From sequence record PQ805429.1: a stretch of 64,000 nucleotides of DNA. One strand, written 5' to 3'. The translations under genes and the position numbers were made by a program. Below, piece after piece: positions 1,650-18,713 of the stretch. How positions within the stretch are numbered: the first letter of the stretch is position 1; every line of letters starts with the position of its first letter. This DNA comes from Escherichia phage EK5. The notes beneath the pieces were generated by a model that was given only the letters and a program-made list of their open reading frames with translations, was not told the DNA's origin and searched no databases.

Positions 1650-2205
1650 GAATGTCTTTGATTTACCTGAGATTGGTCGTGACAGCTATAGTATGTTAGA
1701 CCGGTCCGACCTATCAATCTCTCGCCTTGAAACGATGCAAGGTATGATTAGTGGAAACAGCCTAGAACACATCCTGAGCTGCTTACAAGCTAACATGGAA
1801 CTCTTGCATATCAAAGCTAAAAACTACCACTGGAACGTCTCTGGTGCAGGATTTCAGGGTGTTCATGGTATGTTTGATGAGCTGGAAGATTACGCACGAC
1901 AGGTAGGAGATCGTATTGCTGAACGTATGCGTTACCACTGTGTTAAAGTGGATGCTACAGCAGCTAACTACCTCTCTCATTCTTGGTTCTCAGAGGGTAA
2001 TGCTGATCTAGACATGGACGGTATGCTCTCTGATATGTGCATGACCTTGATGTGTATTATTGAGAAGATGGATGAGTTTGATGGTGATTTAGCCACCTAC
2101 CCTGTCGATCAGAGTATGCTTCAAGAAATTAATGAAGGTCTTGGCAAGTATTGCTACTTCGTCAAGAGCAACATGTCCCATTCAAGTGGTGACGTGTCTT
2201 ACTAA
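1642..2205 (+). CDS. Dps-like ferritin-fold protein
   Basis: Start moved to ATG 1642 (overlaps upstream stop); KNYHWNVSGAGFQGVHGMFDELEDY...DRIAERM matches the Dps ferroxidase-site signature HWNV.G..F..LH..FeE...D..AER. Confidence 0.6.
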   Translation: MHKNVFDLPEIGRDSYSMLDRSDLSISRLETMQGMISGNSLEHILSCLQANMELLHIKAKNYHWNVSGAGFQGVHGMFDELEDYARQVGDRIAERMRYHCVKVDATAANYLSHSWFSEGNADLDMDGMLSDMCMTLMCIIEKMDEFDGDLATYPVDQSMLQEINEGLGKYCYFVKSNMSHSSGDVSY

Positions 2206-2266
2206 AAACCTCCGCCCTGTCTCCTAACCCGAGGTGGGGCGAACTTATTTATAAGGATATAGATAT

Positions 2267-2446
2267 ATGTTATCAGCAATCGTATGGGGTATTTGGGCTA
2301 TCTTTATTGGTGGTGGTATTTATTGGGCTTCTGGTAAGCTTATTGAAGAAACTCCTGATAAGAAAGGTGAGATTCAAACAGCATCAACCATCATGGTTAT
2401 CGTAGCTGTTGTTATCCCATTCCTGCTTCACCTCCTGACTGCATAA
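2267..2446 (+). CDS. small membrane protein (two predicted TM helices)
   Basis: 59 aa ORF below track cutoff; hydrophobic segments AIVWGIWAIFIGGGIYW and IMVIVAVVIPFLLHLL. Confidence 0.4.
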   Translation: MLSAIVWGIWAIFIGGGIYWASGKLIEETPDKKGEIQTASTIMVIVAVVIPFLLHLLTA

Positions 2447-2454
2447 GGATTTAC

Positions 2455-2730
2455 ATGTCTAAAGTAATTAAGTTTTATAGTGATCAGTGTGCTCCATGTA
2501 AAGCAATGGCTCCTACCTTTGAGAAGGTTGTTAAGGAGTTTGATGTAGAAGTGGAAGAGATTAACATCCTTGAAGGTGATGGTCGTGAACAAGCTGTTAA
2601 GTATGGTATACGAAGCATCCCTGCTTTTGTTGTGCCTGACCGTAACAGTGGTGCACACTACAGCCTCTCCGGTATGCAGACTGAAGCAAACCTGAAAGCA
2701 TTTTTGGACACAGCCCTGAGAAATAAGTAA
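2455..2730 (+). CDS. thioredoxin-fold protein (CxxC active site)
   Basis: 91 aa; FYSDQCAPCKAMAP active-site context typical of thioredoxin/glutaredoxin. Confidence 0.7.
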   Translation: MSKVIKFYSDQCAPCKAMAPTFEKVVKEFDVEVEEINILEGDGREQAVKYGIRSIPAFVVPDRNSGAHYSLSGMQTEANLKAFLDTALRNK

Positions 2731-2745
2731 TAAGGATATTCACGG

Positions 2746-3402
2746 ATGAATGAACAACTACAAGCAACATTAATCGAAGCTATGGGAAGTGATCGTAGCG
2801 TAGTAAACGCAGCTCGAGTTTCCTTTGGCGTAACCCGTGAAGGTGATTTAAATGAACGTGATGAACGTCTCATCAACTTCCTCGCAAGAGAGAAGCATGT
2901 TACCCCATTCCGACACCCGCAAGTCAGTTTCCGATGCAAAGCACCTATCGCAATTGCGAGACAGTTGGGCAAGCATCAGGTTGGATTCTCGTGGAACGAA
3001 ATGTCCCGGCGGTATAAAGATGGAGCAGTTGAAGTCTTCATCCCTAAAGAGATTTTTGCGAGACCTTCGGACCTCCATGCAGGTTCAGGGGTTCAACTCA
3101 TCGATGGAGAACGAGCTGAAGCATTAATGTTGATTAACGATGCATATGAAGCTTCTCTAGCAGCATATGACAAGTTGATTGAATTTATTGCACCAGAGCA
3201 AGCTCGATTTGTTCTTCCTCAGGGGATGATCACTGAGTGGGTGTGGACTGGTTCTTTGTATGGCTGGTTTGAGTTGTGCCGTCAGCGACTCTCCTCTCAC
3301 GCTCAATATGAAGTTCGAGTGTTTGCTAAATCTCTAGATGAAGAGATGGCTAAACTCTACCCAATCTCGTGGGCAGCTCTGAAGAAAACTTTGGAGAGTT
3401 AA
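2746..3402 (+). CDS. thyX: flavin-dependent thymidylate synthase ThyX-like
   Basis: 218 aa; RHPQVSF...KHQVGFSWNEMSRRY resembles the ThyX RHR...S.RY signature. Confidence 0.6.
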   Translation: MNEQLQATLIEAMGSDRSVVNAARVSFGVTREGDLNERDERLINFLAREKHVTPFRHPQVSFRCKAPIAIARQLGKHQVGFSWNEMSRRYKDGAVEVFIPKEIFARPSDLHAGSGVQLIDGERAEALMLINDAYEASLAAYDKLIEFIAPEQARFVLPQGMITEWVWTGSLYGWFELCRQRLSSHAQYEVRVFAKSLDEEMAKLYPISWAALKKTLES

Positions 3403-3403
3403 A

Positions 3404-3652
3404 ATGGCTAGTAAAAGTATTTGGATTCTGAGTCGTGTTGAAGAGACAGACAGAGGGGAGTACACAGAAGTGCTTTGCTCTTTCATTACATACCCCACAA
3501 AACAACAGCTTGAAGATGCTGGAGTAGAAATAAATCTTTCTCAATCTCTTTTTGATAAAAAGGTTTCCAAGTCAACAGCCCCATTCTTTGGTTATTACTA
3601 CACACTTGATAGTTTGGAGCTACTGATGAATGATTCTTGTTTGGAGAATTAA
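3404..3652 (+). CDS. hypothetical protein
   Basis: 82 aa ORF, RBS GGAGAG upstream. Confidence 0.45.
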   Translation: MASKSIWILSRVEETDRGEYTEVLCSFITYPTKQQLEDAGVEINLSQSLFDKKVSKSTAPFFGYYYTLDSLELLMNDSCLEN

Positions 3653-3786
3653 TGTTGGAAGAAGATGACGATGTGTTCTGCACCAAGTGTGGGATGACAG
3701 TTGATGATGCATATGACCCAAGTGTAGAAATTTGTCCATGTTGCGGAGTATGTGAATATTGCTGTTCCCACAACTCAGAGGATTAG
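3652..3786 (+). CDS. small Cys-rich protein (putative zinc ribbon)
   Basis: 44 aa, CTKCG...CPCCGVCEYCC; start overlaps previous stop (TAATG). Confidence 0.35.
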   Translation: MLEEDDDVFCTKCGMTVDDAYDPSVEICPCCGVCEYCCSHNSED

Positions 3787-3798
3787 CAGGAATTCCTT

Positions 3799-4032
3799 AT
3801 GAAGATAAAACATATTACAGATATTCAGGAGGCATTTAGAATGCTTCCTCGAAGAGAGAAAGATAAGATTAAGAAGCTTATTCAAGTCTATGGTCATACA
3901 TCTGAAGGTGATGTAGATTATATGCCTGCCACTTTTAGAGAATGCGGAATTGCTCGTAATTTCACATTTGATCGTAAAGTGTTTCAGCAATTCGTTGACC
4001 ACTGGAGAAAAGATGGAAAAGAAAGTCTGTAG
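3799..4032 (+). CDS. hypothetical protein
   Basis: 77 aa ORF. Confidence 0.4.
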   Translation: MKIKHITDIQEAFRMLPRREKDKIKKLIQVYGHTSEGDVDYMPATFRECGIARNFTFDRKVFQQFVDHWRKDGKESL

Positions 4033-4198
4033 CTTCTGTAATAAAGAGAAGACTGTCGCCAACTTTAAACCTAATCCTGTAACTGGTCTGACCCATGTCA
4101 TGTGCCACTCTTGCAGGATATATCTTGAAACAAAACACACTATCAATAGATTGCATTATTATCACCCAACAACATTCAAATTTAAGGTTGTGAAATGA
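4013..4198 (+). CDS. small Cys-rich protein (CxxC...CxxC)
   Basis: Start moved to ATG 4013; CSFCNKEK...CHSCRIY. Confidence 0.4.
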   Translation: MEKKVCSFCNKEKTVANFKPNPVTGLTHVMCHSCRIYLETKHTINRLHYYHPTTFKFKVVK

Positions 4199-4524
4199 TT
4201 GACAGTAATACATTTAGGACTTCAAATGGAAGTGAAATAAGTCCCGCTGAAGTAATCAATCGGCATAGAAGGCAATTGATCATCCATTCCTATTTGTATT
4301 ACTGGTTGGATGACCCTATCTGGTCTGATGATAAATGGCAACAAGTTGCTAATGATCTAGTGGAGCTGCAAGCTCTGTATCCAGAGCCTACCGGAGTCTT
4401 TGACAATGAGTTCAAAGATTGGGATGGTTCTACAGGAATGCATCTCCCACACAATGAGGCTGTTGCTTGTATGGCGACAGCTGTTTACAGGATTCATAAA
4501 GATATGAACCATGAAGTGCTCTAA
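4195..4524 (+). CDS. hypothetical protein with NAD-ligase domain-Ia-like motif
   Basis: 109 aa; HSYLYYWLDDPIWSDDKWQQVANDLVELQALYPEP resembles the LigA N-terminal Ia pattern [29 protein letters not shown]..HPE. Confidence 0.4.
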   Translation: MIDSNTFRTSNGSEISPAEVINRHRRQLIIHSYLYYWLDDPIWSDDKWQQVANDLVELQALYPEPTGVFDNEFKDWDGSTGMHLPHNEAVACMATAVYRIHKDMNHEVL

Positions 4525-4696
4525 ATGTGAAGGAACAAACCTTCATTTAAGTAACAAGATTATCAGAGAGCTTGCCAAAGGCTCTCCAACCAAAGGGAAG
4601 AACAAACGATTTACTAACGTCAGGGTTTATACAGCAATCTGTAAAGACTGTTTAACTACTGAGTGTCATTACGAAGAAATTGGAGAGCGTAAATGA
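4511..4696 (+). CDS. small Cys-rich protein
   Basis: 61 aa; CSKCEG...CKDCLTTEC. Confidence 0.4.
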   Translation: MKCSKCEGTNLHLSNKIIRELAKGSPTKGKNKRFTNVRVYTAICKDCLTTECHYEEIGERK

Positions 4697-5436
4697 GTCG
4701 TCGTCAATCACGGAAAGAATCACGGAAAGACCTTCGTCGGGAAGCACTTGTTACTCGTAAGGGTAAGCGAGAGTATGAAGAGGTGGTTTTAGCAAAGCCT
4801 GTAGTCCCTCAGAACCAGTTTCAGTCTGAGCTACTCAATGCTATTAAGACTAAACAAGTTGTGTTCACAGACGCTCCTGCGGGCTGTGGTAAGACCTTTG
4901 TAATCACTTCCACGGTTATCGATGCACTGAAAAGTGGTAAGATTCAGAAGATCATTCTGAGTCGACCTTCAGTTGGCATGGGCAACTCTCTTGGGTTACT
5001 TCCTGGAGGAATGCGTGAGAAGTTTGAACCTTACCTGATGCCCATCATTGATGTTATTACTCAGCGATATGGTAAGGGGTTCTATGAATGCCAGCTCGGT
5101 AACAGTAACATTGAGTTCGTACCTCTGGAATATCTCCGTGGTCGTTCTTTCAATGATGCTATTGTTATTGTTGATGAATTCCAGAACACCACTAAAGATG
5201 AAGCCTTCTCGATCATGACTCGATTGGGAGAAACCTCTCAGCTGTTCTGCATGGGTGATACTAACCAGCATGATATGCGTGGTCGTGAGAGTGGTCTTAC
5301 TTGGGCTACTAACTTTATTGATGAACATGATCTGTATGAGTTCGCTGAGATTGTAGACGGCGAATCGGATGACATTGTTCGTTCTGGTTTCTGTAAAGCT
5401 ATTGTTAAAGCTATGGAAAAGGAACAAGATAAATGA
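4693..5436 (+). CDS. phoH: PhoH-like ATPase
   Basis: Walker A APAGCGKTF, Walker B IVIVDEFQNTT, PhoH block LEYLRGRSFNDA...MGDTNQHD. Confidence 0.85.
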   Translation: MSRRQSRKESRKDLRREALVTRKGKREYEEVVLAKPVVPQNQFQSELLNAIKTKQVVFTDAPAGCGKTFVITSTVIDALKSGKIQKIILSRPSVGMGNSLGLLPGGMREKFEPYLMPIIDVITQRYGKGFYECQLGNSNIEFVPLEYLRGRSFNDAIVIVDEFQNTTKDEAFSIMTRLGETSQLFCMGDTNQHDMRGRESGLTWATNFIDEHDLYEFAEIVDGESDDIVRSGFCKAIVKAMEKEQDK

Positions 5437-5618
5437 AAGTCGCTTTAGTTATTCGAGATTGTGGTGATGGTTCATCAACCATCGACTTCTACAAAAATAT
5501 CGAACGAGCGTGTTTTGAGTGTGAAGAGTTCAATGAAGACACCTGCATGAATGATGGAGAACCTACTATCATTGACGTTCCTGATGAATTTGTACCACCG
5601 GGAGGGTGGAGTGAGTAA
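5433..5618 (+). CDS. hypothetical protein
   Basis: 61 aa ORF, ATGA overlap with phoH stop. Confidence 0.4.
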   Translation: MKVALVIRDCGDGSSTIDFYKNIERACFECEEFNEDTCMNDGEPTIIDVPDEFVPPGGWSE

Positions 5619-5799
5619 TACTCAAGAGTCAGTAATAGAAGAGATTAAAGCTCAGATAGTTGATAAACTCTCTATCAGAGTTGACTCTAAAGACACCAAA
5701 TGCTCTGGTATACTGAAAATAGAACTCCTCTACAACGGAGAGACTATTTCTTTTGACGAGGTATATGCCTCTGATATTAAATACTTAGCAGAGTTTTAA
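5611..5799 (+). CDS. hypothetical protein (start uncertain, GTG 5611 or ATG 5551)
   Basis: ORF 5551-5799 overlaps upstream gene; in-frame GTG at 5611 follows GGAGGG. Confidence 0.3.
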   Translation: MSNTQESVIEEIKAQIVDKLSIRVDSKDTKCSGILKIELLYNGETISFDEVYASDIKYLAEF

Positions 5800-5808
5800 C
5801 ATCATTCA

Positions 5809-5817
5809 TAATGTATA
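5809..5817 (+). promoter_or_regulatory. TAATGTATA(CT) motif, candidate phage-sigma promoter element
   Basis: Exact TAATGTATACT, 37 nt upstream of ATG 5854; same 11-mer at 12526. Confidence 0.5.
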
Positions 5818-5853
5818 CTCCTTAGTGTACACTGATATATTAAGGAGTTCTAA

Positions 5854-6171
5854 ATGGCAGACCATGTAGGAAAGAGAGATTATGCACAAGAAAGACGTAC
5901 CGCAATTGCCCGTGGTGAAACAGGCGTTGGGAGCAAGAGCGGAGATGCTCAGCGCCACCGTGCACGTCGCATCGTTGAAAAGCGCGATGGAAAAGCTGCT
6001 GTCAGAGGTAAAGATGTTGGACACAAACGAGCTGTCAAGTCTGGAGGCTCTAATGCGTCAAGCAACTTACGTGTTGAATCAGTCAGCTCAAACCGTTCAA
6101 ACGGCGGCAAAAGTGGTGATCGAGCTGGAAAAGCGGCTGGAGCACGCAAAGGAGCTTTAAGCTCATCGTAA
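5854..6171 (+). CDS. small basic Gly/Lys/Arg-rich protein
   Basis: 105 aa; strong RBS TAAGGAG; codon usage (cgt/ggt/gct) matches other likely high-expression genes; flanked by promoter motif and terminator. Confidence 0.5.
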   Translation: MADHVGKRDYAQERRTAIARGETGVGSKSGDAQRHRARRIVEKRDGKAAVRGKDVGHKRAVKSGGSNASSNLRVESVSSNRSNGGKSGDRAGKAAGARKGALSSS

Positions 6172-6175
6172 TATG

Positions 6176-6205
6176 AGGCTACCCAAATGGGTGGCCTTTT
6201 CTTTT
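6176..6205 (+). terminator. rho-independent terminator
   Basis: AGGCTACCC-AAAT-GGGTGGCCT stem-loop followed by TTTTCTTTTAT. Confidence 0.7.
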
Positions 6206-6239
6206 ATATAAACCAAAATAAACTTCTTAGGTAATAAAT

Positions 6240-6494
6240 ATGTCTATTGTAAAAATCGTAAATATTTTTGATGTAACCAGAGATGGCAAGATTGTTAAGT
6301 GGACTTTCACTAACCACCACAACAAATCAAACAAGATCATCGAACGGATGATTGAGATTAACCCAAAAACAGCTCGCACTAATGTAATCCTTCGTGGTGC
6401 TGATGGTAAATTCATTTCTTATAAGAATAAGAACGTAGAAAAATCTTTCCGTGTTGCAGTAGAAAATCTCATCCCATTCCCTAAAGGAGTTTAA
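6240..6494 (+). CDS. hypothetical protein, tandem paralog 1 of 2
   Basis: 84 aa; shares KTART.V.LR...GKFISY......A.E.L.PFP.G with next ORF. Confidence 0.5.
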   Translation: MSIVKIVNIFDVTRDGKIVKWTFTNHHNKSNKIIERMIEINPKTARTNVILRGADGKFISYKNKNVEKSFRVAVENLIPFPKGV

Positions 6495-6495
6495 T

Positions 6496-6780
6496 ATGAA
6501 TAAGTTAGCTATGGTACAGATTCGAGATACATACCCTAACCGCCCGGAGCAGAAACCGCGTACTTGGTCTTATCTGTTGGCTGAAAGTAAGACTATTGAC
6601 AAATACGCTGTAGGGATTGATGCTATTCCAACTAGTATCACATTGCTCCCTCACAAAACAGCCAGAACCCATGTGATGTTACGTGATAGTAAAGGTAAGT
6701 TTATCTCTTATCGTGATTCACGAATCAATAATGAAATTAAATCTGCTATGGAATTTTTGATGCCATTCCCAAGAGGTTGA
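6496..6780 (+). CDS. hypothetical protein, tandem paralog 2 of 2
   Basis: 94 aa; same conserved C-terminal block. Confidence 0.5.
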   Translation: MNKLAMVQIRDTYPNRPEQKPRTWSYLLAESKTIDKYAVGIDAIPTSITLLPHKTARTHVMLRDSKGKFISYRDSRINNEIKSAMEFLMPFPRG

Positions 6781-6783
6781 GTG

Positions 6784-6942
6784 ATGAAAGAATACATTTA
6801 CGTAGGACAGCGCTGGTTCGGCGATGAATGGGAAGGCGGATACAGCGTTGTGAAAGCTTTTAAGTCGGAAGAAGATGCCAAGTCATGGGTCTTAAAAGAC
6901 GACGTTGGCGAGAGAACTTACATTGAAGTAGAGGTGGAGTAG
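6784..6942 (+). CDS. small hypothetical protein
   Basis: 52 aa ORF below track cutoff, tightly packed between neighbours. Confidence 0.3.
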   Translation: MKEYIYVGQRWFGDEWEGGYSVVKAFKSEEDAKSWVLKDDVGERTYIEVEVE

Positions 6943-6943
6943 G

Positions 6944-7357
6944 ATGCCATTACCAGCTAGACACCAAAACCGTTTCTTAGTTCTAAAGTGGGATGATATC
7001 GAAATGAATCTCACTGAACATGAACTAGATTTGTTCCATGAATTATTATCAGAGATTCGCTCTGGTATTCCTGAACGTCAGTATGTGGTTATCAGCGATA
7101 AGCACCCTCAAGAATTTGAAGAAGCTTGGGGTATGAAACTGGCTTACATCCAAAGAGCTATTCGAGAAAGAGAAGAAGTTGCTAATCAAAGAGTTGTGGC
7201 TCATCTAGTCAGAGAACAGCCTCGTGAAGTTAGGTCTTCTTATTCTCCATCTACTTGGGCACAAACAAATGCAGCAATGAGAACATATGCTGTTGATTCC
7301 ACATCCTTGGATGTAGTAGAAGATAACCAAGCATTTACAGATTTACTTTACCAATAA
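6944..7357 (+). CDS. hypothetical protein
   Basis: 137 aa ORF immediately upstream of the polymerase gene. Confidence 0.45.
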   Translation: MPLPARHQNRFLVLKWDDIEMNLTEHELDLFHELLSEIRSGIPERQYVVISDKHPQEFEEAWGMKLAYIQRAIREREEVANQRVVAHLVREQPREVRSSYSPSTWAQTNAAMRTYAVDSTSLDVVEDNQAFTDLLYQ

Positions 7358-7373
7358 TTTAAAGGAGTATAAA

Positions 7374-9218
7374 GTGAGCAACCCGGACGCTCTTCCATTT
7401 TTGACAGAGATGACTGTCGCTGATATAATCTCTAAGCAAGCAAAGCACGGAGTGAGTTTCAACCGAAGAAATGCTCGGTGGTATGTTCACCTCCTTAAAG
7501 AGATTATTGTTAATATTGACAGAGAGTTGATTCCTCTCTTACCTAAGATGAGATTAGATGGCTCTACTTACATGAAGCCATTTAAGAAGTCTGGAGCTTT
7601 ACAGAAGTGGCCTCAAGCCTATTGTGATAGGGTTGGGCTGAAGAGAGAAGATATTGGTGGAGCTTTCACCTGTGTCGAATACGTAGACTTTGACCCATCG
7701 AAAGATGCACGAGTTAAAGAAGCTCTTATGGATGAGGGCTTTCTTCCTCCAGAGTTTAACGTATCTAAGAAGCCTTGGAATACTTTCGAAATTAAGAAAG
7801 ACATGCGAAAGTATGGAACATACCAAGCATGGTATACTGCTTGGATGCGAGGCAATGCTAAGCAGAAGCAGACAGCCGAGATGGTTGACGCTGATATTAA
7901 GAAGTTCTTAGAAAAGCATTTCAGGTTTAAAACTAAGAATTATATGAAGGCTTACGTATTTGGTTTGGGATTAAACCCTAATCGCCGTAATCCTGTAACG
8001 TTTGATGAGATTAAGAAAGCACTAGCCACATCAAACAAGTGGCCTACAGCTCCTACAAACCTCGAGGAGACTCTTGAAGAAGGGTTAGGGGGTGAGCTAG
8101 GGAGTGTCGGAAGTTTGCTTAAGAGACGCGTTGTAGCGGCTCACAGGCTAGGTCTTATCAGTGGACTCATAGCAAAGGAACGCGAAGATGGTAAACTTTC
8201 GGCAGAAGCTAACAGCTGCGCTACGCCGACTTTTCGATTCAAACATCGTATCGTGGTTAATATTCCCTCCCGTGGTCTGTTTGGTCACGAGTGTCGCAGT
8301 TTGTTTGAGTCTGACTATAACTCAGACAGTGATCACTCTCGTCCTTTCGTTATTACTAACGTTGTTCCTGATGGTTGTTATATACGAAAAGGTACTAACG
8401 TAATTTACGAGAAAGGTAAGCCGGGTAAGAAAGACAAACCTATAGGTGCTTACAAATATTACATACCCGCTGGTAAAGAAGTATTCTTAGGGTATGATGG
8501 TTCTGGACTTGAACTTCGTATGCTCGCTCACTACCTCATTAAAGAGTGTAGAGATATGCTTGCTGAGGCAATTGAAGAGAACAATCCAGCTAAGAAAGCT
8601 CTGGCAGAACGTGGTTTAGCTTCTGCTATTATGTATCGTGATATTCTCCTTGAAGGTGATATCCACTCCCACAACCAGAAACTTGCTGGTCTTCCTACTC
8701 GTGACAACGCTAAAACGTTTATCTATGCATTCAACTATGGTGCTGGCGACGCTAAGCTTGGTTCAATTGTAGGTGGTGGGGCTGACGAAGGTTCAGTGAT
8801 GCGAGCACGTTTCTTAGCAGAGAACCCATGTATTGCAATCCTCATTGATCGTATGACAGAAAAGGCTGCTCAAGGATACTTGATTGGTGTTGATGGTCGT
8901 AAGATTACAATGAGACGAGATGCCACTGGTAAAGTTATGGTTCATAAAGCACTTAACACTCTCCTGCAATGTGCTGGTGCTGTTGTTATGAAATACGCTA
9001 TGATGTTCCTTAACAAGTGGATTGAGAAAGATAAGGTTCGTTGTGCTAAGGTAATTGATATGCACGATGAAGGTCAGTTCTCAGTGAACCGTAATGATGT
9101 ACAGAAACTCAAAGAGCACACCGAGCTTTGTGTTAAGAAGGCTGGTGAGTATTTGAACATGGAATGCCCTCTGGCTTCTGATTGTCAGATTGGACTTAAC
9201 TGGATGCATACACACTAA
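7374..9218 (+). CDS. family A (T7-type) DNA polymerase, polymerase domain
   Basis: GTG start after AAAGGAG; motif A YDGSGLELRMLAHY, motif B RDNAKTFIYAFNYGAG, motif C VIDMHDEG, C-terminus GLNWMHTH (T7 gp5 ends GPNWAICH); no 3'-5' exonuclease motifs seen. Confidence 0.85.
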   Translation: MSNPDALPFLTEMTVADIISKQAKHGVSFNRRNARWYVHLLKEIIVNIDRELIPLLPKMRLDGSTYMKPFKKSGALQKWPQAYCDRVGLKREDIGGAFTCVEYVDFDPSKDARVKEALMDEGFLPPEFNVSKKPWNTFEIKKDMRKYGTYQAWYTAWMRGNAKQKQTAEMVDADIKKFLEKHFRFKTKNYMKAYVFGLGLNPNRRNPVTFDEIKKALATSNKWPTAPTNLEETLEEGLGGELGSVGSLLKRRVVAAHRLGLISGLIAKEREDGKLSAEANSCATPTFRFKHRIVVNIPSRGLFGHECRSLFESDYNSDSDHSRPFVITNVVPDGCYIRKGTNVIYEKGKPGKKDKPIGAYKYYIPAGKEVFLGYDGSGLELRMLAHYLIKECRDMLAEAIEENNPAKKALAERGLASAIMYRDILLEGDIHSHNQKLAGLPTRDNAKTFIYAFNYGAGDAKLGSIVGGGADEGSVMRARFLAENPCIAILIDRMTEKAAQGYLIGVDGRKITMRRDATGKVMVHKALNTLLQCAGAVVMKYAMMFLNKWIEKDKVRCAKVIDMHDEGQFSVNRNDVQKLKEHTELCVKKAGEYLNMECPLASDCQIGLNWMHTH

Positions 9219-9226
9219 GGTGAGTG

Positions 9227-9592
9227 ATGAAAGAAACCAATATCATCTACAGAACATTGAGATGTTTAGCTAAAGAGAGGGGGATGGAGGATTTCCTCCT
9301 CCAATATTATGAAATAACTAAGACTGGAATTTATCCAAAATGGTTTAGTGAAGATCACGGATTATGCTTCAACTTTCGCTGTTATAAGAGGTATTACTAT
9401 TTCACAAAGCATTTAGATATTGACGACATGAAGAATATGTTTAATCAAGAAAAGTTTTTGGACCCAACATACCCATTCGGATGTGATCAATATTTTAGAG
9501 ATAGGGAAAACGGGGCACATCATAAGAATCCAAAACGACGGGCTTGGATTAAAGATACACTGAAAACTCTATATAGTATTGAGGTTGAGTGA
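9227..9592 (+). CDS. hypothetical protein
   Basis: ORF, ATG 9227 after AAGGTGAG. Confidence 0.4.
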   Translation: MKETNIIYRTLRCLAKERGMEDFLLQYYEITKTGIYPKWFSEDHGLCFNFRCYKRYYYFTKHLDIDDMKNMFNQEKFLDPTYPFGCDQYFRDRENGAHHKNPKRRAWIKDTLKTLYSIEVE

Positions 9593-9783
9593 TGAGTGTT
9601 CGTGGTTATTATGAATCTTGGGCCGTCTTCAGCGGTGGCTCCACTCTCGTAGCATTAAATGGTCAACTGTGTATCTTTGAGACAGAGAACTTAGCAATAA
9701 CCAAAGCAGCAGAACTAGTTCGAAAGTTTCCAAACAAGACATTCACAGTTAAAAGGATAGAAGTACCTGCATTGGTAGAGTGA
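9592..9783 (+). CDS. hypothetical protein
   Basis: 63 aa, start overlaps previous stop. Confidence 0.4.
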   Translation: MSVRGYYESWAVFSGGSTLVALNGQLCIFETENLAITKAAELVRKFPNKTFTVKRIEVPALVE

Positions 9784-10326
9784 ATAAATAAGACGAATGA
9801 ACTATTCTTATTGATTGGTTCGTAACAAGGAGATTGAAGTGGAAGAGATGCCATCGGATTGGTGTTATCGTCAGAGCGCCATCTGTAATGAACAAGGTCG
9901 TCCTGATGAGGCTGAGTTCTATCTAGAGCTAGCCGAACTGTGGAAAGAACGAGAGGAGAAAGAGTGATGGAAGGTATTTACCGTAAACCGCCTCCAAAAT
10001 ATAACATCCTTTATATTGATGCAACAGGTGAGTTTAGAAGTGTGTTAGTTTACACGGATGAAGAACGAAACCAAATGGTTGCTGCTATTGAAGCCAATGG
10101 TGGTACAATCATGCGAATTTATAACATAACATAAGGAATATCAATGACTGCTTCTGAATTAAAAGAAACCCTATCCACTGAAGAAGGTAAAGCTTTCTTC
10201 TTATCTCAAGTACACTCTATGGGTAAAGATGCCCTTCGCCAAGCAGTCGTTGAGCTTACTGGTGTAGTGATTGACTTGAGTATTGAAAATGAAACACTTG
10301 AAGCTAAAGTGAACGGTTAAATAAGA

Positions 10327-10350
10327 AGCTGCCTTCGGGCGGCTTTTCTT
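10327..10350 (+). terminator. rho-independent terminator
   Basis: AGCTGCC-TTCG-GGCGGCT followed by TTTTCTT. Confidence 0.6.
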
Positions 10351-10366
10351 GTCTAAAGGATTTGAC

Positions 10367-10759
10367 ATGAATATTGGTTTAGATTATGATGACACTTACA
10401 CAGCAGACAGACGACTGTGGAGAGATGTGATAGGCTTGATGAAAGGGTATGGGCATGATGTAAGATTCGTGACTTTCCGTTTCTCAGAGCCTAACGGTTA
10501 TGATAACGTGGATATCCTCTATGATGCAGAGACCCTGCAAATCCCTGTCATCTTTTGTAATGGTGTACAGAAGGATGAGGTGTGTCGACAGTTAGGTTTC
10601 TTCGTCGATATCTGGATTGACGACTTCCCTGTTGGAATCCCCAAAAAGGACCACCTAGACGGTATGCTGAAGGGCGTAAGACTTAATGACCTTAGGGCAG
10701 CACCTCCTGTAGAAATAGCCGCTCCTGTGTACTCTGAAGAGCCTTTGGTGATTCGATGA
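10367..10759 (+). CDS. HAD-superfamily hydrolase, possible 5'-nucleotidase
   Basis: Start moved to ATG 10367; N-terminal MNIGLDYDDT (HAD motif I) and VDIWIDDFP (motif IV-like). Confidence 0.45.
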   Translation: MNIGLDYDDTYTADRRLWRDVIGLMKGYGHDVRFVTFRFSEPNGYDNVDILYDAETLQIPVIFCNGVQKDEVCRQLGFFVDIWIDDFPVGIPKKDHLDGMLKGVRLNDLRAAPPVEIAAPVYSEEPLVIR

Positions 10760-10932
10760 AAAAGATAATCCTTTGGGCTTTAGGTATAGCTCTTTTCCTG
10801 TATCTGATTGATCTCGGAGGAGATGCCAGTAGAGAAGACTGTGAAGTGAGATTGTCTCAGGAATTTAAGTCAGAGACAAAGTGGGTTAACGGTCGATGCT
10901 ATGTAAAAGATTGGGGAAGAACTTCTCGATGA
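10756..10932 (+). CDS. small protein with N-terminal signal/TM segment
   Basis: 58 aa; MKKIILWALGIALFLYLI hydrophobic N-terminus. Confidence 0.3.
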   Translation: MKKIILWALGIALFLYLIDLGGDASREDCEVRLSQEFKSETKWVNGRCYVKDWGRTSR

Positions 10933-11090
10933 AAAAGTATAGTGTATGGTTTAACGAAGTAGAAGAAGGTTTTGATGAAGTTGGAGGATGGGTAAATATC
11001 CTAAACACTGACGACATAGAAGAGGCCGAGAAGTGCGCCCTAAACTATAACTCTGGATATTATGAAAGAAATTGGGAATATGAGGAATAA
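10929..11090 (+). CDS. hypothetical protein
   Basis: ATGA overlap with upstream stop. Confidence 0.35.
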   Translation: MKKYSVWFNEVEEGFDEVGGWVNILNTDDIEEAEKCALNYNSGYYERNWEYEE

Positions 11091-11092
11091 GA

Positions 11093-11314
11093 ATGATTTG
11101 GGTTCACACTTATAGAATTGGGAAGAAAGGGCTTACTACTATTCACACATCTGAAGATAGTGCTAAAGCATCTCAGGCTGTACTGAAAGGAAAGATCACA
11201 CCTTATGTAGTCGCTGAAGAAAAGAAGAATCCTCCAGTTCTGGAATACTTAGGAACAGGTAAAGCTTATACAGCACTGGATGTTATTAACAACAAACAAG
11301 GAGATGTGGCATAA
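11093..11314 (+). CDS. hypothetical protein
   Basis: 73 aa ORF. Confidence 0.4.
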   Translation: MIWVHTYRIGKKGLTTIHTSEDSAKASQAVLKGKITPYVVAEEKKNPPVLEYLGTGKAYTALDVINNKQGDVA

Positions 11315-11316
11315 AA

Positions 11317-11532
11317 ATGGAATACATTGATAAATACTCAGGTGAAGATTCAACAGACGCTGAAGTTTTATTTATACTAAAAACAGACTGTCTTGAACAT
11401 GGTCAACTTATCAATTTCATTGAGTTGGCAAAACTTAAAGAAGAGATTGATCAACTGTATAGCGATGAGCAATCCAGATTACTTTCTCTATCACTTCTAG
11501 GCGATTTAACTTGCGATGGGTGTACTATCTAA
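11317..11532 (+). CDS. hypothetical protein
   Basis: 71 aa ORF. Confidence 0.4.
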   Translation: MEYIDKYSGEDSTDAEVLFILKTDCLEHGQLINFIELAKLKEEIDQLYSDEQSRLLSLSLLGDLTCDGCTI

Positions 11533-11541
11533 GAGGTCTTT

Positions 11542-12045
11542 ATGGCTGAAGTTTATTTTGCAGGGGATGGTCACTTAGGTCATCGCAACATCTGTAGTTT
11601 TCGTAAGCAATTTAAAACCATCGAAGAACATGACAAAGCAATTCTAGCTGCATTTGATCATGTAACTAAGCGAGATAAAATCTTCTTTACCGGTGATTGG
11701 GTGTTTGAAAAGTATGCCCTTGATATCATCGCTGAAGTAAAAGGAGAGAAGCATCTAGTCTTAGGAAACCATGACAGGTTAGAACTTCTCCCTGATATGA
11801 TGAAAGTCTTCCGTAGAATCTCTGGTGATTATAAATATAAAGAGTTTTGGGTAACTCATATCCCTATTCACACTGATGAGATGAGAGGAAAGTTTAACAT
11901 TTATGCTCATACACACAACCATGTAATTGATGATTGGAGATATTTCTGTACATCAATGGAGCAAATTGACTATAAAGCTGTTTCTCTGCAAGAGATTAGG
12001 AAGGTCTTTGATGAAAGAAGAAAAGAACAAGATCTCGTTATTTAA
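11542..12045 (+). CDS. calcineurin-like metallophosphoesterase
   Basis: GDGHLGH, FTGDWV, LGNHD, AHTHNH match phosphoesterase metal-binding motifs. Confidence 0.7.
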   Translation: MAEVYFAGDGHLGHRNICSFRKQFKTIEEHDKAILAAFDHVTKRDKIFFTGDWVFEKYALDIIAEVKGEKHLVLGNHDRLELLPDMMKVFRRISGDYKYKEFWVTHIPIHTDEMRGKFNIYAHTHNHVIDDWRYFCTSMEQIDYKAVSLQEIRKVFDERRKEQDLVI

Positions 12046-12525
12046 AGAACCTGTAGTACATAAAGACTCTATCAGAGATCAATATAATGAGATGTTAAAG
12101 AAACAAGCTGATTCTAATCTTCGTTATCAGAGGATAGTAGAAAAATCTAACTTTAAAGGTTTACTTGAATGGTAACTTATATCCTTTACTTTTTAGCTTT
12201 CTTAGGAATAATCTTTTTATCTATTCTTATTGAATTCGGTTTAAGTAAGTTAGTTAATTATTTAGGTAATAAGTAATTAATATTCTTTTAAATAGAGAAT
12301 CAAAGTCCCTAGGAGTCCCTACAACCTAAATCAAGGATTCCTTAATTCTCTATTTTTATCTCGCAGGTGGCTCCTGCCCTTCGGTACTTGCAAGGGATTC
12401 TGTGAATTGCCCAATATACAAGCCTGCAATAACTTTATCAGCTATACAATATATATACATTACTAGTGTGTTATATCTACTACCAAAGATACTTATATTA
12501 TATAGTACTCTTATCGGTATAAGCG

Positions 12526-12534
12526 TAATGTATA
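12526..12534 (+). promoter_or_regulatory. TAATGTATA(CT) motif, candidate phage-sigma promoter element
   Basis: Exact TAATGTATACT 60 nt upstream of ATG 12594 in a 410-bp AT-rich intergenic region; inverted copy (minus sense) at 12454-12462. Confidence 0.5.
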
Positions 12535-12593
12535 CTATACATAACCGCTCAAAGAGAGCAACAATCTTTCAAATTAAATAAGGAAATTAAAAT

Positions 12594-13340
12594 ATGTCTA
12601 TGATTCCAACTATCGCAACTGCTTCCCGTAAATCCAACTACGATGTAATCCCTGATGGTGAGTACGAAGCACGTATCGTTCGTGTAGTAGGTTTAGGTGT
12701 TCACAATCGTGACCCTTGGATTGACCCGAAGACCAAAGCAGTAACTCCTAAGAATCCGGCTTTCCGTATGGATTTGGCTTTCGAGCTGATTGGTGTTGAT
12801 GCTACTGGTAAAGATTCCGATGGTAAGGCATTAGAACCACGTCCAGCTTGCCAGTTCAAGAGCTATGATGTAAACCCACGAGCTAAGAACTCTGGTATTC
12901 TTGATCTTTGCAAGATGATTGACCCAAGTATTCAAGCACTGAAAGGTGATCTATCTTGGTTCAAGGATGTTCTGTTAGGTCAGCCTGTTAACATTCTGGT
13001 TAACTCTTATACTAACAAAGCTGGTGAAGTTAAAAACTCCATCAAGACCATTTCTCCAATCCCAACCAAATATCGTGCAGCAGTTGGTGAAGCTCGTAGT
13101 CCTCTGGTATTCTTCGAACCATATGCTGAAACCGACGAGAACGTAGCATCCTACCAACTGATGTTCCCGTTCCAGCGCAACCTGCTTACTCAAGCTAATG
13201 ACGCTAAGAACATGCCTCTGGCTGGTCGTGAAATTACTCGTGCTTCTGAAACAGAGCAGAAAGAAGCTACTCCTTCAATCCCTACGATTGATAAAGAGCC
13301 TGCTTCTACTTACGAAGACGACAACGATAGCCCATTCTAA
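12594..13340 (+). CDS. putative ssDNA-binding protein (acidic C-terminal tail)
   Basis: 248 aa; C-terminus YEDDNDSPF resembles the SSB tail DDDIPF; strong RBS AAGGAA, high-expression codon usage, promoter motif upstream and terminator downstream. Confidence 0.45.
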   Translation: MSMIPTIATASRKSNYDVIPDGEYEARIVRVVGLGVHNRDPWIDPKTKAVTPKNPAFRMDLAFELIGVDATGKDSDGKALEPRPACQFKSYDVNPRAKNSGILDLCKMIDPSIQALKGDLSWFKDVLLGQPVNILVNSYTNKAGEVKNSIKTISPIPTKYRAAVGEARSPLVFFEPYAETDENVASYQLMFPFQRNLLTQANDAKNMPLAGREITRASETEQKEATPSIPTIDKEPASTYEDDNDSPF

Positions 13341-13361
13341 TAACTCTCCTTGTTATAGCTT

Positions 13362-13385
13362 AGCCACCTCCGGGTGGCTTTTTTC
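13362..13385 (+). terminator. rho-independent terminator
   Basis: AGCCACC-TCCG-GGTGGCT followed by TTTTTT. Confidence 0.75.
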
Positions 13386-13397
13386 GTTGGAGACAAC

Positions 13398-13748
13398 ATG
13401 CAAAACACATTAAGTGATAACTTAGGGTTTATCGTTTTCTCAGCTCTTGTATTCTTTGGTGGTATGAAGTTTAACGAATATCAAACAGACAGCAGTAATC
13501 TGGACAAAGAGAAGCACCAGCAAGAGTTAGAGATTGAAAGAAGTAGAGCAGCTGATGAAGTTGCTCAGAGAGTTCTTACCGGTTTATCTAACTGGAAGAA
13601 GAACACGGAAACCGTTTATAAAGAGATGCATTATGAGAAAACTAAACCAGTTTTTTATAATGTCTGCGCTAGTGATGAGTATGTCAGCTTGTTCAACGAG
13701 CGACAACAGCAGGCAATCAATGCCCTTACCAACAAACCTAAAAGCTGA
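13398..13748 (+). CDS. putative i-spanin (Rz-like)
   Basis: N-terminal TM helix LGFIVFSALVFFGG followed by charged coiled-coil region; contains overlapping lipoprotein gene in +1 frame. Confidence 0.5.
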   Translation: MQNTLSDNLGFIVFSALVFFGGMKFNEYQTDSSNLDKEKHQQELEIERSRAADEVAQRVLTGLSNWKKNTETVYKEMHYEKTKPVFYNVCASDEYVSLFNERQQQAINALTNKPKS

Positions 13749-13892
13749 ATGTAGGGTTGACCTACCTCTTTTAGAAAGTGCTCAAGGAAAAGCACTAGCC
13801 ACTACGTTGGAGTGGTATCAGGACCAGTATACAGAATGTGCTGCTAATCACAATGGATTGTTAGAAGCTCTGAAAGAGCGTGGAATAGAATA

Positions 13893-13893
<1 letters not shown>
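13633..13893 (+). CDS. putative o-spanin (Rz1-like lipoprotein)
   Basis: ATG 13633 inside the i-spanin gene; signal peptide MRKLNQFFIMSALVMSMSAC with lipobox-like MSAC; short mature protein. Confidence 0.5.
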
Positions 13894-15385
<1,492 letters not shown>

Positions 15386-15389
<4 letters not shown>

Positions 15390-16279
15390 ATGAAGAGGTA
15401 AAAGCTTTAAAGAAAGCTCTTGCAATTAAAATCAAACATTTAAATTTCGTCAGAGATGAGTTGGAGGAGCTATCCAACTTATCAGGATATGAGTTACAGA
15501 ATGAGCTTGTAGAGTTTCAAATCAATATTGATGGCGGTAAATACGTAGAAACAACTAGAGCGATTTTACCTAAAGTTACTGGTAACAAAACTTCTCCAAT
15601 AGACTACTCACATGACCACACGGAGCAATTAGAAATGGAATCTCAAGGCAATCCAGCACTGACCAATATGGTGGGAGATTCCCATTATAAGCCTTTAGTA
15701 GTAATTCTTAATGGGCCTCCGGGTTGTGGTAAAGATACGATAGCCAATGCTTGGGTTAATGCCCATTCATACCATCACAATTATTCAACCAAATCCTTCA
15801 AGGAGCCAATGTACAAGGTAGCTGCTGCTGCACTAGGCATACCTCTAGAAAACTTTCTAGCACGCTATGAAGACCGTGAATGGAAAGAAAAACCTAGACC
15901 AGAATGGGGAGGGAAGTCTGTAAGAGATTTGATGATTTCTACAAGTGAAGACTTCTTAAAACCTATGTTTGGCAACAATCATATGGGGGATCTTGCTGTA
16001 AAAAGCATCAAACAAGAAGGGCTAGGTCAGGATGATATTGTCGTGTTTACTGACGGAGGTTTTGATGCAGAGGTACGAGAACTAGAAAAGAATTTCCATG
16101 TCCAAGTTGTCCAAGTTCTTAGAGATGGTTGCTCTTTTGATGGAGACTCTCGCTCATATATTGAAGGCGAACAGAGAAAAACATATCTACTGTTTAATGA
16201 CTCAACTATTGAATCAGCAGTATCAGATCTAGATTGGATTATTGCACAAGCTCAGGATGATATTTATGGAAGAAGTTAA
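15386..16279 (+). CDS. P-loop nucleotide kinase, dNMP-kinase-like
   Basis: Walker A NGPPGCGKDTIANAW similar to T4 gp1 SGKDTTADF; N-terminal ~100 aa extra coiled-coil region; ATGA overlap with upstream gene. Confidence 0.5.
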
Positions 16280-17084
16280 GCTCCCTGAAGTTGCTATAGT
16301 GGATGCTGACGTTCTTCGATATGAAGTGGGTGCTCTTACTCAGGAGCATCCCTTTCTTGACACAGGACGTGTTCCAGTTGATTACAATTTCATGATTGAA
16401 CGACTTCAGTACAAGATAGATACAATCATTGCTCGCTCAGGTTGCAGCAAGGTTGTGTTCTACTTCAGCGAAGGTGGTAACTTCCGTTTTGATGTTGCTA
16501 AGCAGCAAGACTATAAAGCAAATAGACCTCCCGGAGAGAGACCTTTTCACTGGCAAAATGTTGGTGATTATATTAAAGGTAAATATGAATACATAGATGT
16601 ATTTGGGAGAGAGGCTGATGATGCACTAGCTGAAAGGCAACGTAGGGATAAGAACACTATCATCTGTACTAGAGACAAGGATTTGTTGATAACTCCCGGA
16701 TGGCACTACCGTTGGGCTTGTGGAGAAAGACAGAAAGAAGTTCCTCCTCACTATGTATCTGATTTAGTTTCATGGCAAAACTTCTTCTATCAGATGTTGA
16801 TTGGAGATGGTACAGATAATATCCCCGGATGTGGGGAACGTAAAGAGGTTATGTGGGGTGGTAAACTTCAGCTTCGACGTCAAGGTATAGGGAAGAAGGC
16901 AGCAACTAAATTACTAGCTGATGTTACAGATAAGTGGACCATGTATCATATAGTACGAATGGAATATTATAAGAAGTTCGATACTGAAGATGAAGAGAAG
17001 ATGCTTGAGAATGCTAGGCTGCTCTTTGTTGGTCAGACTCCGGAAGATTTATTTGATTGGACATGGTTGGATAGAGAATGGTAA
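16266..17084 (+). CDS. 5'-3' exonuclease (FEN/Pol I 5'-nuclease family)
   Basis: YKANRPP, GREADDALA and TRDKDLL match Pol I 5'-nuclease motifs YKA.R, EADD, GDKD; start moved to ATG 16266. Confidence 0.7.
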   Translation: MEEVKLPEVAIVDADVLRYEVGALTQEHPFLDTGRVPVDYNFMIERLQYKIDTIIARSGCSKVVFYFSEGGNFRFDVAKQQDYKANRPPGERPFHWQNVGDYIKGKYEYIDVFGREADDALAERQRRDKNTIICTRDKDLLITPGWHYRWACGERQKEVPPHYVSDLVSWQNFFYQMLIGDGTDNIPGCGERKEVMWGGKLQLRRQGIGKKAATKLLADVTDKWTMYHIVRMEYYKKFDTEDEEKMLENARLLFVGQTPEDLFDWTWLDREW

Positions 17085-17590
17085 CAGATTATAGATCTAG
17101 TAATACCCCAGAAGACATTAGAGATTTATGGCAAACTCCTAAATGGCTGTTTGATTTCTTTAACACAAGGTTTGAATTCTCCTGTGATATAGCATCTAGT
17201 GACAAGAATCATCTACTAGAAAAATATATAACAGAGGAAATGAATTCTCTAACCTATGATTTCTCTGAGTTCAGAAACACTTACACTTGGTGTAATCCTC
17301 CATATTCAGATATAACTCCTTGGGTTGACTTGGCAATCAAAAACAAGAAACTTAAAGTTGGTACAGTTTTATTACTACCAGCTGATACTTCTGTTAAGTG
17401 GTTTACTAAGTGTATAAACCATGCTGATGAGATTGTTTTCATAACAGGTGGTCGTGTGAGTTTCACAAGAGCAGATACACAGCAAAGTGTTAGTGGTAAC
17501 ACTAAAGGAAGTGTAGTAGTCATCTTCTCCACTGAAGCAGAGAGACGTAAGCTCTCAACCTCCTATATAGAAAGAGACTGGATAAAATAA
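17078..17590 (+). CDS. DNA N6-adenine methyltransferase (phage Dam family)
   Basis: WQTPKWLFDFF and catalytic NPPY motif. Confidence 0.75.
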   Translation: MVTDYRSSNTPEDIRDLWQTPKWLFDFFNTRFEFSCDIASSDKNHLLEKYITEEMNSLTYDFSEFRNTYTWCNPPYSDITPWVDLAIKNKKLKVGTVLLLPADTSVKWFTKCINHADEIVFITGGRVSFTRADTQQSVSGNTKGSVVVIFSTEAERRKLSTSYIERDWIK

Positions 17591-17600
17591 GGATATTATA

Positions 17601-17780
17601 ATGGGTAAATTTGATTATCGTTCATATGATGAAAACTCATCCAATCGTGAATCTCGTAAAGATCAAAAGATTAAACATCAACTGTTTGATCAGCGAACCG
17701 GTCGTATTCCTCGTGAGGGCAAAGTGAGCCATCGTGTAAACAAACGAGTTTGGGAAGAAGCTGATTATGGCGAAGTCTGA
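17601..17780 (+). CDS. small hypothetical protein
   Basis: 59 aa ORF below track cutoff filling the gap between neighbours. Confidence 0.3.
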   Translation: MGKFDYRSYDENSSNRESRKDQKIKHQLFDQRTGRIPREGKVSHRVNKRVWEEADYGEV

Positions 17781-18168
17781 GAAGACTCGCTGTAGTGGAA
17801 TGTGGACTGAAGCTCGTTATAACTCTTTCATCAAGTCAGGGATTCGTTCTCTGACTAGAAAATGGAAGCCCATGTTCGATGCACTAGCAGACGCCAAGAC
17901 AGAGCAGAAGATTAATCCAAAGACAGGCAGACTGGCAATGCACTTTAAGTGTGCCATGTGTGGTTCTGACCACCCTGTAAAGGATATGGCTATTGACCAC
18001 ATAGAGCCTATAGTTCCTCTTGACCATGAAGCCACTTGGGATGAGATCATCTCTCGTGCTCTGTGTGAGAAAGAAGGTTTTCAGGTTCTGTGTAAAGACC
18101 CTTGTCATAAGATTAAAACAAAAGAAGAGAATGATGCAAGAAAACAATTCAAAAAAGGAAATGAGTGA
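17767..18168 (+). CDS. HNH endonuclease
   Basis: CAMCG...AIDHIEPIVP...CHKIK matches the HNH zinc-finger nuclease pattern. Confidence 0.65.
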   Translation: MAKSEKTRCSGMWTEARYNSFIKSGIRSLTRKWKPMFDALADAKTEQKINPKTGRLAMHFKCAMCGSDHPVKDMAIDHIEPIVPLDHEATWDEIISRALCEKEGFQVLCKDPCHKIKTKEENDARKQFKKGNE

Positions 18169-18388
18169 TGATCAAAAATCTACGCAACAAGTGCTTCGCT
18201 TTCGCTATCGCAATTGGAGAGGCGAGGTTGCTGACCGGTCCGTTATTCCACTCCGAACCTCCGTTGCTAGCTCCCGTTTTCATAACGGTGGCAAACCTTG
18301 TTGGATTATGACAGCGATAGATGTAGAGAAAGATGAGATTCGAGAGTTCAAACTCTCTGACATTATTCAGTATTACGATTTAATCTAG
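18161..18388 (+). CDS. hypothetical protein
   Basis: Start moved to ATG 18161 overlapping HNH stop. Confidence 0.4.
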   Translation: MSDDQKSTQQVLRFRYRNWRGEVADRSVIPLRTSVASSRFHNGGKPCWIMTAIDVEKDEIREFKLSDIIQYYDLI

Positions 18389-18713
18389 GAACTGACATGA
18401 TCACACAAGCAGATAAAAACAAGCTCTTCGACTTAATCCATGACCTACTAGAAGCTCAGAGCTTTATTGATAATGCCGATACTTGGGAGATGGAAGCAGC
18501 TGGAAAAGCTTTTGATGAAAGTGAAGAGAAACTTACTAATTTTATAAACACAATCTAGGAGGGTATATGAATGAAGAAGTTGTTATCCTTGGAAGTAAAT
18601 CGGATTGGTTCTATGGAGGCATCTCAGGATGCTTTGAAGATGAACATCCAGACTTCTGAAGAGAATTGGGATGTATGACGAATTTGATGGTTTTTAAAAC
18701 TTAGAAACAAATA

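Follow-up and report, generated by a model that had tools for sequence, protein, structure and literature searches.

We analysed a window of 64,000 nucleotides (nt) from Escherichia phage EK5 (PQ805429.1), a phiEco32-like Kuravirus that is 96–99% identical to phiEco32, SU10 and YW01 in this stretch, and focus here on the non-coding interval upstream of gene 40. Around this interval, identity amounts to 99.0% with Escherichia phage YW01 and 97% with SU10 (positions 11000-16000), and to 98% with phiEco32 itself, of the genus Kuravirus (12150-12650). The interval is a 317-base-pair (bp) gap between the homologues of phi32_41 (gene 41, 12169-12276) and phi32_40 (gene 40, 12594-13340), and it contains two exact copies of the 9-mer TAATGTATA. 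One of them (12526-12534, plus strand) precedes gene 40. The other (12454-12462, minus strand) faces opposite to all neighbouring genes and points into the gap, towards the 3' ends of genes 41 and 42 or of a phosphoesterase gene; we refer to it as the orphan. Further to the right, at 14353-15000 on the plus strand, lies the gene for a phage sigma factor, a homologue of gp36. Its product matches chain F of PDB 9m7y (E = 1.1e-145, residues 2-215) as well as, weakly, Pfam Sigma70_r2, and it is annotated as an RNA polymerase sigma factor in relatives. A first-pass annotation of the window had already implied that this product is the phage sigma factor, and its match to the gp36 chain of 9m7y bears this out.

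Promoter elements upstream of gene 40

Within the window, TAATGTATA occurs five times, compared with a mean of 0.85 copies expected from dinucleotide-preserving shuffles, and none of 100 such shuffles reached five copies. The sites are 5809-5817(+), 12526-12534(+), 12454-12462(-), 23208-23216(-) and 40289-40297(-), which confirms the observation and the coordinates of the first-pass annotation. That all copies are intergenic holds as well: all five lie outside the annotated genes of close relatives. In an open reading frame (ORF) map that was corrected with the annotations of relatives, non-coding DNA makes up 11.4% of the window, and the probability that five of five copies fall there by chance is about 2e-5. 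When one mismatch was allowed, 22 matches were found where 21.7 were expected, that is, there was no enrichment, and the signal therefore consists of the exact copies and two specific variants only. A scan with WAATGTAKA gave exactly seven matches in the window, all seven non-coding. Four of the exact copies had been placed 34-60 nt before a start codon with a strong ribosome-binding site. This description holds: between the last base of the 9-mer and the ATG, the gaps are 36 nt (5809), 59 nt (12526), 38 nt (23208) and 33 nt (40289), and an AAGGAG-type ribosome-binding site is present at each of these four genes.

Such sites are known from phiEco32, in which six promoters were experimentally identified upstream of genes 6, 13, 26, 40, 58 and 68 (Lavysh et al. 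2022, PMC8948821; PMC4331800; PMC4281155). These middle and late promoters carry tAATGTAtA and are used by Escherichia coli RNA polymerase together with gp36 (PMC8948821, PMC4331800), with transcription starting 6-8 nt downstream of the element (PMC8948821). In the cryo-electron microscopy (cryo-EM) structure of the gp36-RNA polymerase-gp79 open complex on the promoter P68 published in 2025 (Xu et al., PMC12276001; PDB 9m7y), AATGTA occupies positions -14 to -9. The N-terminal domain of gp36 makes base-specific contacts to -14A, -13A, -12T and -11G, and the C-terminal domain contacts -37G and -34A of P68 through R187 and Y186, respectively; mutating -37G/-34A abolishes transcription, contrary to the earlier view of a 'single-element' promoter (PMC12276001). 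Flanking sequences of six promoter sites are listed for SU10 (Table S2 of PMC4281155), and they match the window at 1272+, 5809+, 12526+, 23208-, 40289- and 47703-; the gene order downstream agrees with that of phiEco32 and Bas90. Since each of the six published promoters has its single counterpart in the window, the first-pass interpretation of the motif as a promoter for the phage's own sigma factor, as in phiEco32, is correct but already published: four of the five exact copies, together with a near-match noted at about 1271, are published promoters. TAATGTATA is the -10-like element of gp36 middle and late promoters, already characterised, and as far as the motif itself is concerned, what we have recovered, in a phage closely related to phiEco32, is a promoter class from the literature. 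New relative to the literature compared is only the copy at 12454, which had rightly been described as pointing away from annotated genes.

Could the host's sigma-70 account for the motif as a simple -10 region (TATACT or TATATA after TG), without any phage sigma factor? TGTATACT contains TATACT, a 5/6 match to TATAAT, and the SU10 authors suggested that the middle promoters might also be read by sigma-70 (PMC4281155). However, published in vitro work assigns the sites to the gp36 holoenzyme (PMC8948821, PMC12276001), a consensus scan of 11900-12700 revealed nothing above chance, and gp79 shuts off sigma-70 transcription at the time when gp36-dependent genes are expressed (PMC12276001). We consider a host-only reading highly improbable.

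The orphan shares more than the 9-mer with a validated promoter. Its -10-like element (12454-12462, minus strand) is an exact TAATGTATA that runs on to give AATGTATATA, a form also seen in P68 and P26, and a -35-region box, TTGGTAGTAGATA (12474-12486, minus strand), begins 25 nt upstream of AATGTA. This places G12484 at -37 and A12481 at -34, the bases contacted by the gp36 C-terminal domain in P68. P68 itself (1248-1280, plus strand), upstream of gene 68 (1320-1649), consists of the same box at 1248-1260 and of AAATGTATA at 1272-1280; its element, aAATGTATA, has one mismatch to TAATGTATA, at the same variable position as published, and is the near-match at about 1271 mentioned above, which is thus real. 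The 13-mer TTGGTAGTAGATA occurs just twice in the window, in the orphan and in P68, with equal spacing. The two-part pattern GGTAGTAG-N15-AATGTATA is likewise found at these two places in the window and never in shuffles, and it is present in two copies per Kuravirus genome in IMG/VR. Scans of IMG/VR with this pattern and with the block downstream of the orphan returned Kuravirus genomes only and no more distant homologues. Aligned on AATGTA, all seven window sites (the six published ones and 12454-) have a purine at -37 and A at -34. For the orphan, the predicted transcription start is G12447(-) by the cryo-EM numbering, or 12446-12448 by the 6-8 nt rule. On the other side of the interval, P40 (12526-12534, plus strand; PMC8948821 Table S3) is an exact TAATGTATA that drives gene 40; its AATGTA (12527-12532) corresponds to -14 to -9, which predicts a start at A12541. 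The site is identical to the SU10 entry aagcgtaatgtatactatacataaccgctc, given there as 'between CDS37 and 38', and is kept in all aligned relatives.

We then aligned nine genomes, comprising Kuravirus (the window, phiEco32, MN05 and TH43), Suseptimavirus (SU7 and ECBP2), Nieuwekanaalvirus (KBNP1711) and the unclassified Bas86 and Bas88. Only 1 of the 13 columns of the orphan -35 box and none of the 10 columns of the -10 box were variable, versus 9 of 12 in the spacer and 6 of 7 in the immediately upstream flank. Boxes that are kept while spacer and flank drift are the pattern expected of a working two-element promoter. In total, the orphan was found in phiEco32, NJ01, KBNP1711, MN05, SU7, Bas86, Bas88, TH43, ECBP2, ES17, Paul, EcoN5 and three metagenomic contigs. 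Neither box is lost in any of the approximately 16 relatives examined, from three genera; one metagenome scan contributed two orphan copies but little diversity. The orphan is kept in every genome examined, whereas the validated P58 is missing in ES17 and Bas86. By motif, architecture and conservation, 12446-12534 thus has the appearance of a back-to-back pair of gp36 promoters, with P40 directed rightward and the orphan leftward.

In ES17-type phages and in a metagenomic contig of 76.6 kilobases (kb), an insertion of about 144 bp lies between the orphan and P40. Both promoters survive, the ES17-type orphan retaining ATGGTAGTATATC-N12-AATGTATATA, and the upstream box of the orphan therefore does not serve P40 as an upstream element. 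The insertion contains an annotated ORF of 47 amino acids, the ATG of which overlaps the orphan -35 box.

A non-working copy at 12454, be it a relic of a P68 duplication, a decoy for the gp36 holoenzyme or an upstream element of P40, would fit with its absence from the six experimentally identified promoters and with the lack of a gene downstream. Yet such a copy would hardly keep both boxes across three genera amid drifting spacer and flanks, an element belonging to P40 conflicts with the variable distance to P40 in ES17-type phages, and a structured, conserved block begins at the predicted start. We regard a non-working copy as very unlikely. Instead, the orphan is probably an active promoter of the middle subclass to which P68 belongs. 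The six promoters given in PMC8948821, PMC4331800 and SU10 Table S2 (PMC4281155) do not include it, a comparison that excludes the primary paper, Pavlova 2012, and within these lists it would be a seventh promoter of a known class.

The conserved block downstream of the orphan

From the predicted start, the orphan points into a block (approximately 12290-12400) that is near-invariant and more conserved than the flanking genes, even where the flanking genes differ or are missing. No conserved ORF was found in the block; a 1-nt indel and a replaced central segment break every reading frame. Two minus-strand ORFs of 32 and 34 amino acids were rejected, one because it starts upstream of the predicted transcription start, the other because indels in relatives break its frame, with the nucleotides invariant. 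A plus-strand ORF of 59 amino acids (12402-12581) was rejected for a broken frame in relatives as well. The block showed no similarity to complete E. coli genomes. It contains two GTCCCTA direct repeats (7 nt, spaced by 10 nt), both of which are changed to GTCCT in Bas88, TH43 and ECBP2.

From the orphan start and RNA folds, a candidate non-coding transcript of about 160 nt is predicted at 12285-12447 on the minus strand. RNAalifold places a 5' hairpin at 12429-12445(-), 0-3 nt from the predicted start, followed by a variable central minus-strand hairpin, for which MN05 and ECBP2 have a different hairpin instead, and by a GCAGG/CCUGC hairpin at 12363-12377(-), the sole variable base of which lies in the loop. 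At the far end, a long 3' hairpin, AAATAGAGAAT...ATTCTCTATTT (12290-12357), can be read on either strand; it has a TTTTT run on the plus strand, and its stem is invariant in the nine genomes. In the window, a 2-nt TA insertion (12450-12451) is found at the junction of the orphan -10 box and the 5' hairpin in comparison with phiEco32 and every other aligned genome, which moves the predicted orphan start 2 nt further from the hairpin.

Compensatory changes were detected in the 5' hairpin. At pair 7-17, six of the nine sequences have CG, two UA and one AU; at pair 4-20, eight have UA and one GC; at pair 6-18, seven have GC and two GU. The covarying pairs number three, all of them in this hairpin, and derive from five distinct hairpin variants only. 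In addition, several helices include invariant G·U pairs, which minus-strand RNA alone can form and which would be A·C mismatches in plus-strand RNA. The fold energy is -45.8 kcal/mol for the minus strand (z -2.25) versus -35.3 kcal/mol for the plus strand (z -1.37). Among all 165-nt windows in 1-18558, the region of plus-strand genes, none has a more negative plus-strand GC skew than the candidate RNA stretch; in other words, its minus strand is rich in G, a property of sense strands in the rest of the genome. The long hairpin, which has A and U tracts on either side, may be a two-way terminator, ending both the upstream plus-strand operon and an orphan transcript. A simple terminator scan of 11900-12700, which gave nothing above chance, did not call it, since its stem is AT-rich and its loop large. 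Of the products considered for the orphan, the likeliest is a separate non-coding RNA of about 160 nt, which the 5' hairpin would stabilise and which would end at the long hairpin; it is a real possibility that we put forward tentatively.

The same block could act at the level of DNA. A transcript or R-loop from the orphan might prime a replication origin there, or activate one. In favour of this, the near-invariant block holds no genes and lies within the cluster of replication genes, with a phage-specific promoter directed into it. The RNA would be rich in G and its template rich in C, the GTCCCTA repeats change together in Bas88, TH43 and ECBP2, and the spacer between the orphan and P40 is AT-rich (30% GC). 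But the phage encodes its own primase/helicase, so that transcript priming is not required, and in ES17-type phages the AT-rich spacer is split by the ORF-bearing insertion of 144 bp. Furthermore, the compensatory changes and the G·U pairs of the 5' hairpin indicate that it is the structure of the RNA that is under selection, and the literature on the phiEco32-like group consulted for comparison reports no mapped origin. An origin at this site therefore appears unlikely.

Another way to account for the locus is an effect on the converging operon upstream. Through antisense RNA or polymerase collision, the orphan might insulate gene 40 and the sigma gene from read-through, or repress the gene 41 peptide as in type I toxin-antitoxin systems. 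Indeed, the orphan converges with genes 41 and 42 across the shared hairpin, and gene 41 (12169-12276) encodes a hydrophobic peptide of 35 amino acids. Convergent type I toxin-antitoxin loci can share a two-way terminator, and the layout resembles theirs. Against this, Bas86, Bas88, TH43, ECBP2 and Paul are without genes 41/42 and still keep the orphan and the invariant block, and neither collision nor antisense action would need about 110 nt of near-invariant sequence. We judge an operon-directed role to be quite unlikely.

The explanation that we favour, a gp36 promoter pair with a non-coding RNA made from the orphan, is likely as a whole. In it, host E. coli RNA polymerase together with gp36 (14353-15000) reads the TAATGTATA sites, the gp36 N-terminal domain recognising AATGTA at -14 to -9 and melting the DNA from -11, and transcription starts 6-8 nt after the 9-mer. 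Rightward, P40 drives gene 40 and the genes that follow it. Leftward, the orphan would be active at middle times and make an RNA that begins at about 12447(-) and ends at or just beyond the long hairpin (12290-12355).

Several observations weigh against this explanation. Promoters of the class lie upstream of middle or late genes, whereas no conserved minus-strand ORF follows the orphan. The experimental papers report six gp36 promoters only, and the primary paper, Pavlova 2012, may have considered and dismissed the orphan. With regard to the RNA, helices other than the 5' hairpin are mostly invariant and provide no covariation either way, and no significant structure is seen in the central domain (z -0.3 to -0.5). 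On the minus strand, the 3' hairpin is without a clear U-tract, which makes the 3' end uncertain. Searching 12150-12620 on both strands against Rfam 15 gave, at gathering and permissive thresholds alike, chance-level matches only (E of at least 1, 15-16 bits), and a search for phage mRNA targets, by duplex energies against start regions and by exact 11-mers, revealed no outlier. Finally, the activator gp79 had no tblastn match in the window. Its homologue in the near-identical Bas90 (PDB 9m7y_G) maps to about 13.5 kb of genome outside the window, and gp79 is thus missing from the window, but presumably not from the phage.

Upstream boxes and the remaining gp36 promoters

Three of the remaining promoters are late promoters on the minus strand. 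P26 (23208-23216) and P13 (40289-40297) are exact copies of TAATGTATA, and both carry TAAGACCTA at -38 to -30 (23231-23239 and 40312-40320, respectively). These boxes are conserved in SU7, IME267 and ECBP2 while their flanks vary. In the window, TAAGACCTA occurs six times versus 0.63 expected, and none of 100 shuffles reached six copies; besides the two promoter-associated sites, it is found at 14272-14280(+), 63407(+), 48667(+) and 8149(-). Another of these copies adjoins TAATGTTTA just upstream of the sigma gene. The presence of TAAGACCTA at P26 and P13, and of TTGGTAGTAGATA at P68 and the orphan, suggests that gp36 promoters have class-specific upstream boxes. Shared boxes of this kind bear on a question raised by the 2025 structure, namely whether gp36 promoters are truly 'single-element'.

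The third late promoter, P6 (47703-47711, minus strand), is the published site TAATGTAGA, which the first-pass annotation had missed. Its element TAATGTAgA differs from TAATGTATA by one mismatch, again at the same variable position as published. Two exact copies had been described as directly following terminators. Among the exact copies, P13 is the only clear case; the second clear case is P6, which lies directly after a terminator-like hairpin and is not an exact copy. Between the P6 element and its predicted start there is an AGGAG (47691-47711, minus strand). Since AGGAG precedes the predicted start, an mRNA initiated at P6 would have a leader of only about 5 nt, without a ribosome-binding site.

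On the plus strand, both boxes of P68 are invariant in SU7, Bas89, 172-1, E20-1 and Bas87. P58 (5809-5817) is an exact TAATGTATA and is listed in SU10 Table S2 and PMC8948821. In neither ES17 nor Bas86 does an AATGTA lie within 90 nt of the start of the gene-58 homologue, and in Bas86 a homing (HNH) endonuclease gene abuts the gene-58 start. At 5817-5848(+), read-through RNA can fold into a hairpin of 13 bp (-19.7 kcal/mol, z -2.75) in which the ribosome-binding site of gene 58 is buried; E20-1 and EP335 have the identical hairpin. RNA initiated at P58 would leave this ribosome-binding site free because the predicted start, 5824, lies inside the 5' arm of the hairpin. Downstream of P40, the 5' untranslated region of gene 40 (12541-12593, plus strand) is almost invariant across genera. 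It starts with a GCUC-AAAGA-GAGC hairpin (12547-12559), in which the sole change seen affects the loop, in KBNP1711. An Rfam match to 'DUF2815 RNA' upstream of gene 40 (15 bits; E = 1.1 and 5.8) was rejected, as it is driven by the AT-rich ribosome-binding region.

Two further candidates were dropped. GAATGTATA at 57406 lies inside an ORF of 98 amino acids that is annotated in Bas90. The second, TAATGTATT, had been noted as a near-match at about 49237; it exists, though its position is 49223-49231(-), and we reject it as a promoter. Its base is T both at -34 and at the last position of the motif, the next start codon is 199 nt away, and by coordinate mapping the region corresponds to the SU10 genome terminus. 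Nor is it among the published gp36 promoter lists compared. TAATGTATT stands directly upstream of three tandem repeats, spaced by about 13 nt, each with ACGGGG (CCCCGT on the plus strand), and the whole arrangement (49179-49231, minus strand) is situated within the long non-coding region at this terminus. It may relate to genome ends or packaging rather than transcription. Elsewhere, the early region contains a tRNA-Arg gene (anticodon TCT; 60069-60144, plus strand), as reported for SU10 and SU7.

Significance and comparison with known systems

phiEco32 is a model for the redirection of host RNA polymerase by a phage, through a sigma factor of its own and the dual regulator gp79; the number of gp36 promoters on its transcription map, six, has not changed since 2012. 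If true, a seventh promoter would add a non-coding product or an origin to this map. The orphan is more consistently conserved than the validated P58 and points into a gene-free, invariant block. As a more speculative proposal, the orphan and 12290-12447 may together form an undescribed gene, expressed by the sigma factor gp36 throughout the Gordonclarkvirinae and giving rise to a structured regulatory RNA or to an RNA that primes or activates an origin, and gp36 promoters may fall into subclasses with distinct upstream boxes that possibly set middle and late timing.

The candidate RNA resembles stand-alone small-RNA genes in having its own promoter, no ORF, a length of about 160 nt, 5' and 3' hairpins and conservation across genera. 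It is unlike them in that it has no Rfam match, no clear U-tail and no target found. A second parallel is provided by transcription-activated origins, such as the primary origin of phage T7 and the middle-promoter origins oriF and oriG of T4. There too, a phage-specific promoter fires into non-coding DNA in or near replication genes. In contrast, the candidate RNA described here shows signs of a selected secondary structure, and sequence hints are what speaks for an origin role. For some late genes of T4, translation depends on the promoter used, and the hairpin at P58 resembles this arrangement.

P68 and the orphan are alike in TTGGTAGTAGATA, the 12-nt spacer, AATGTATATA and the bases -37G, -34A, -14A, -13A, -12T and -11G. 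They differ in that P68 precedes a protein-coding gene and is experimentally validated, whereas the orphan is a predicted promoter that precedes no ORF. Between the published phiEco32 and SU10 promoters and the six corresponding sites in the window there is no difference: element, positions, sigma factor and genus are the same.

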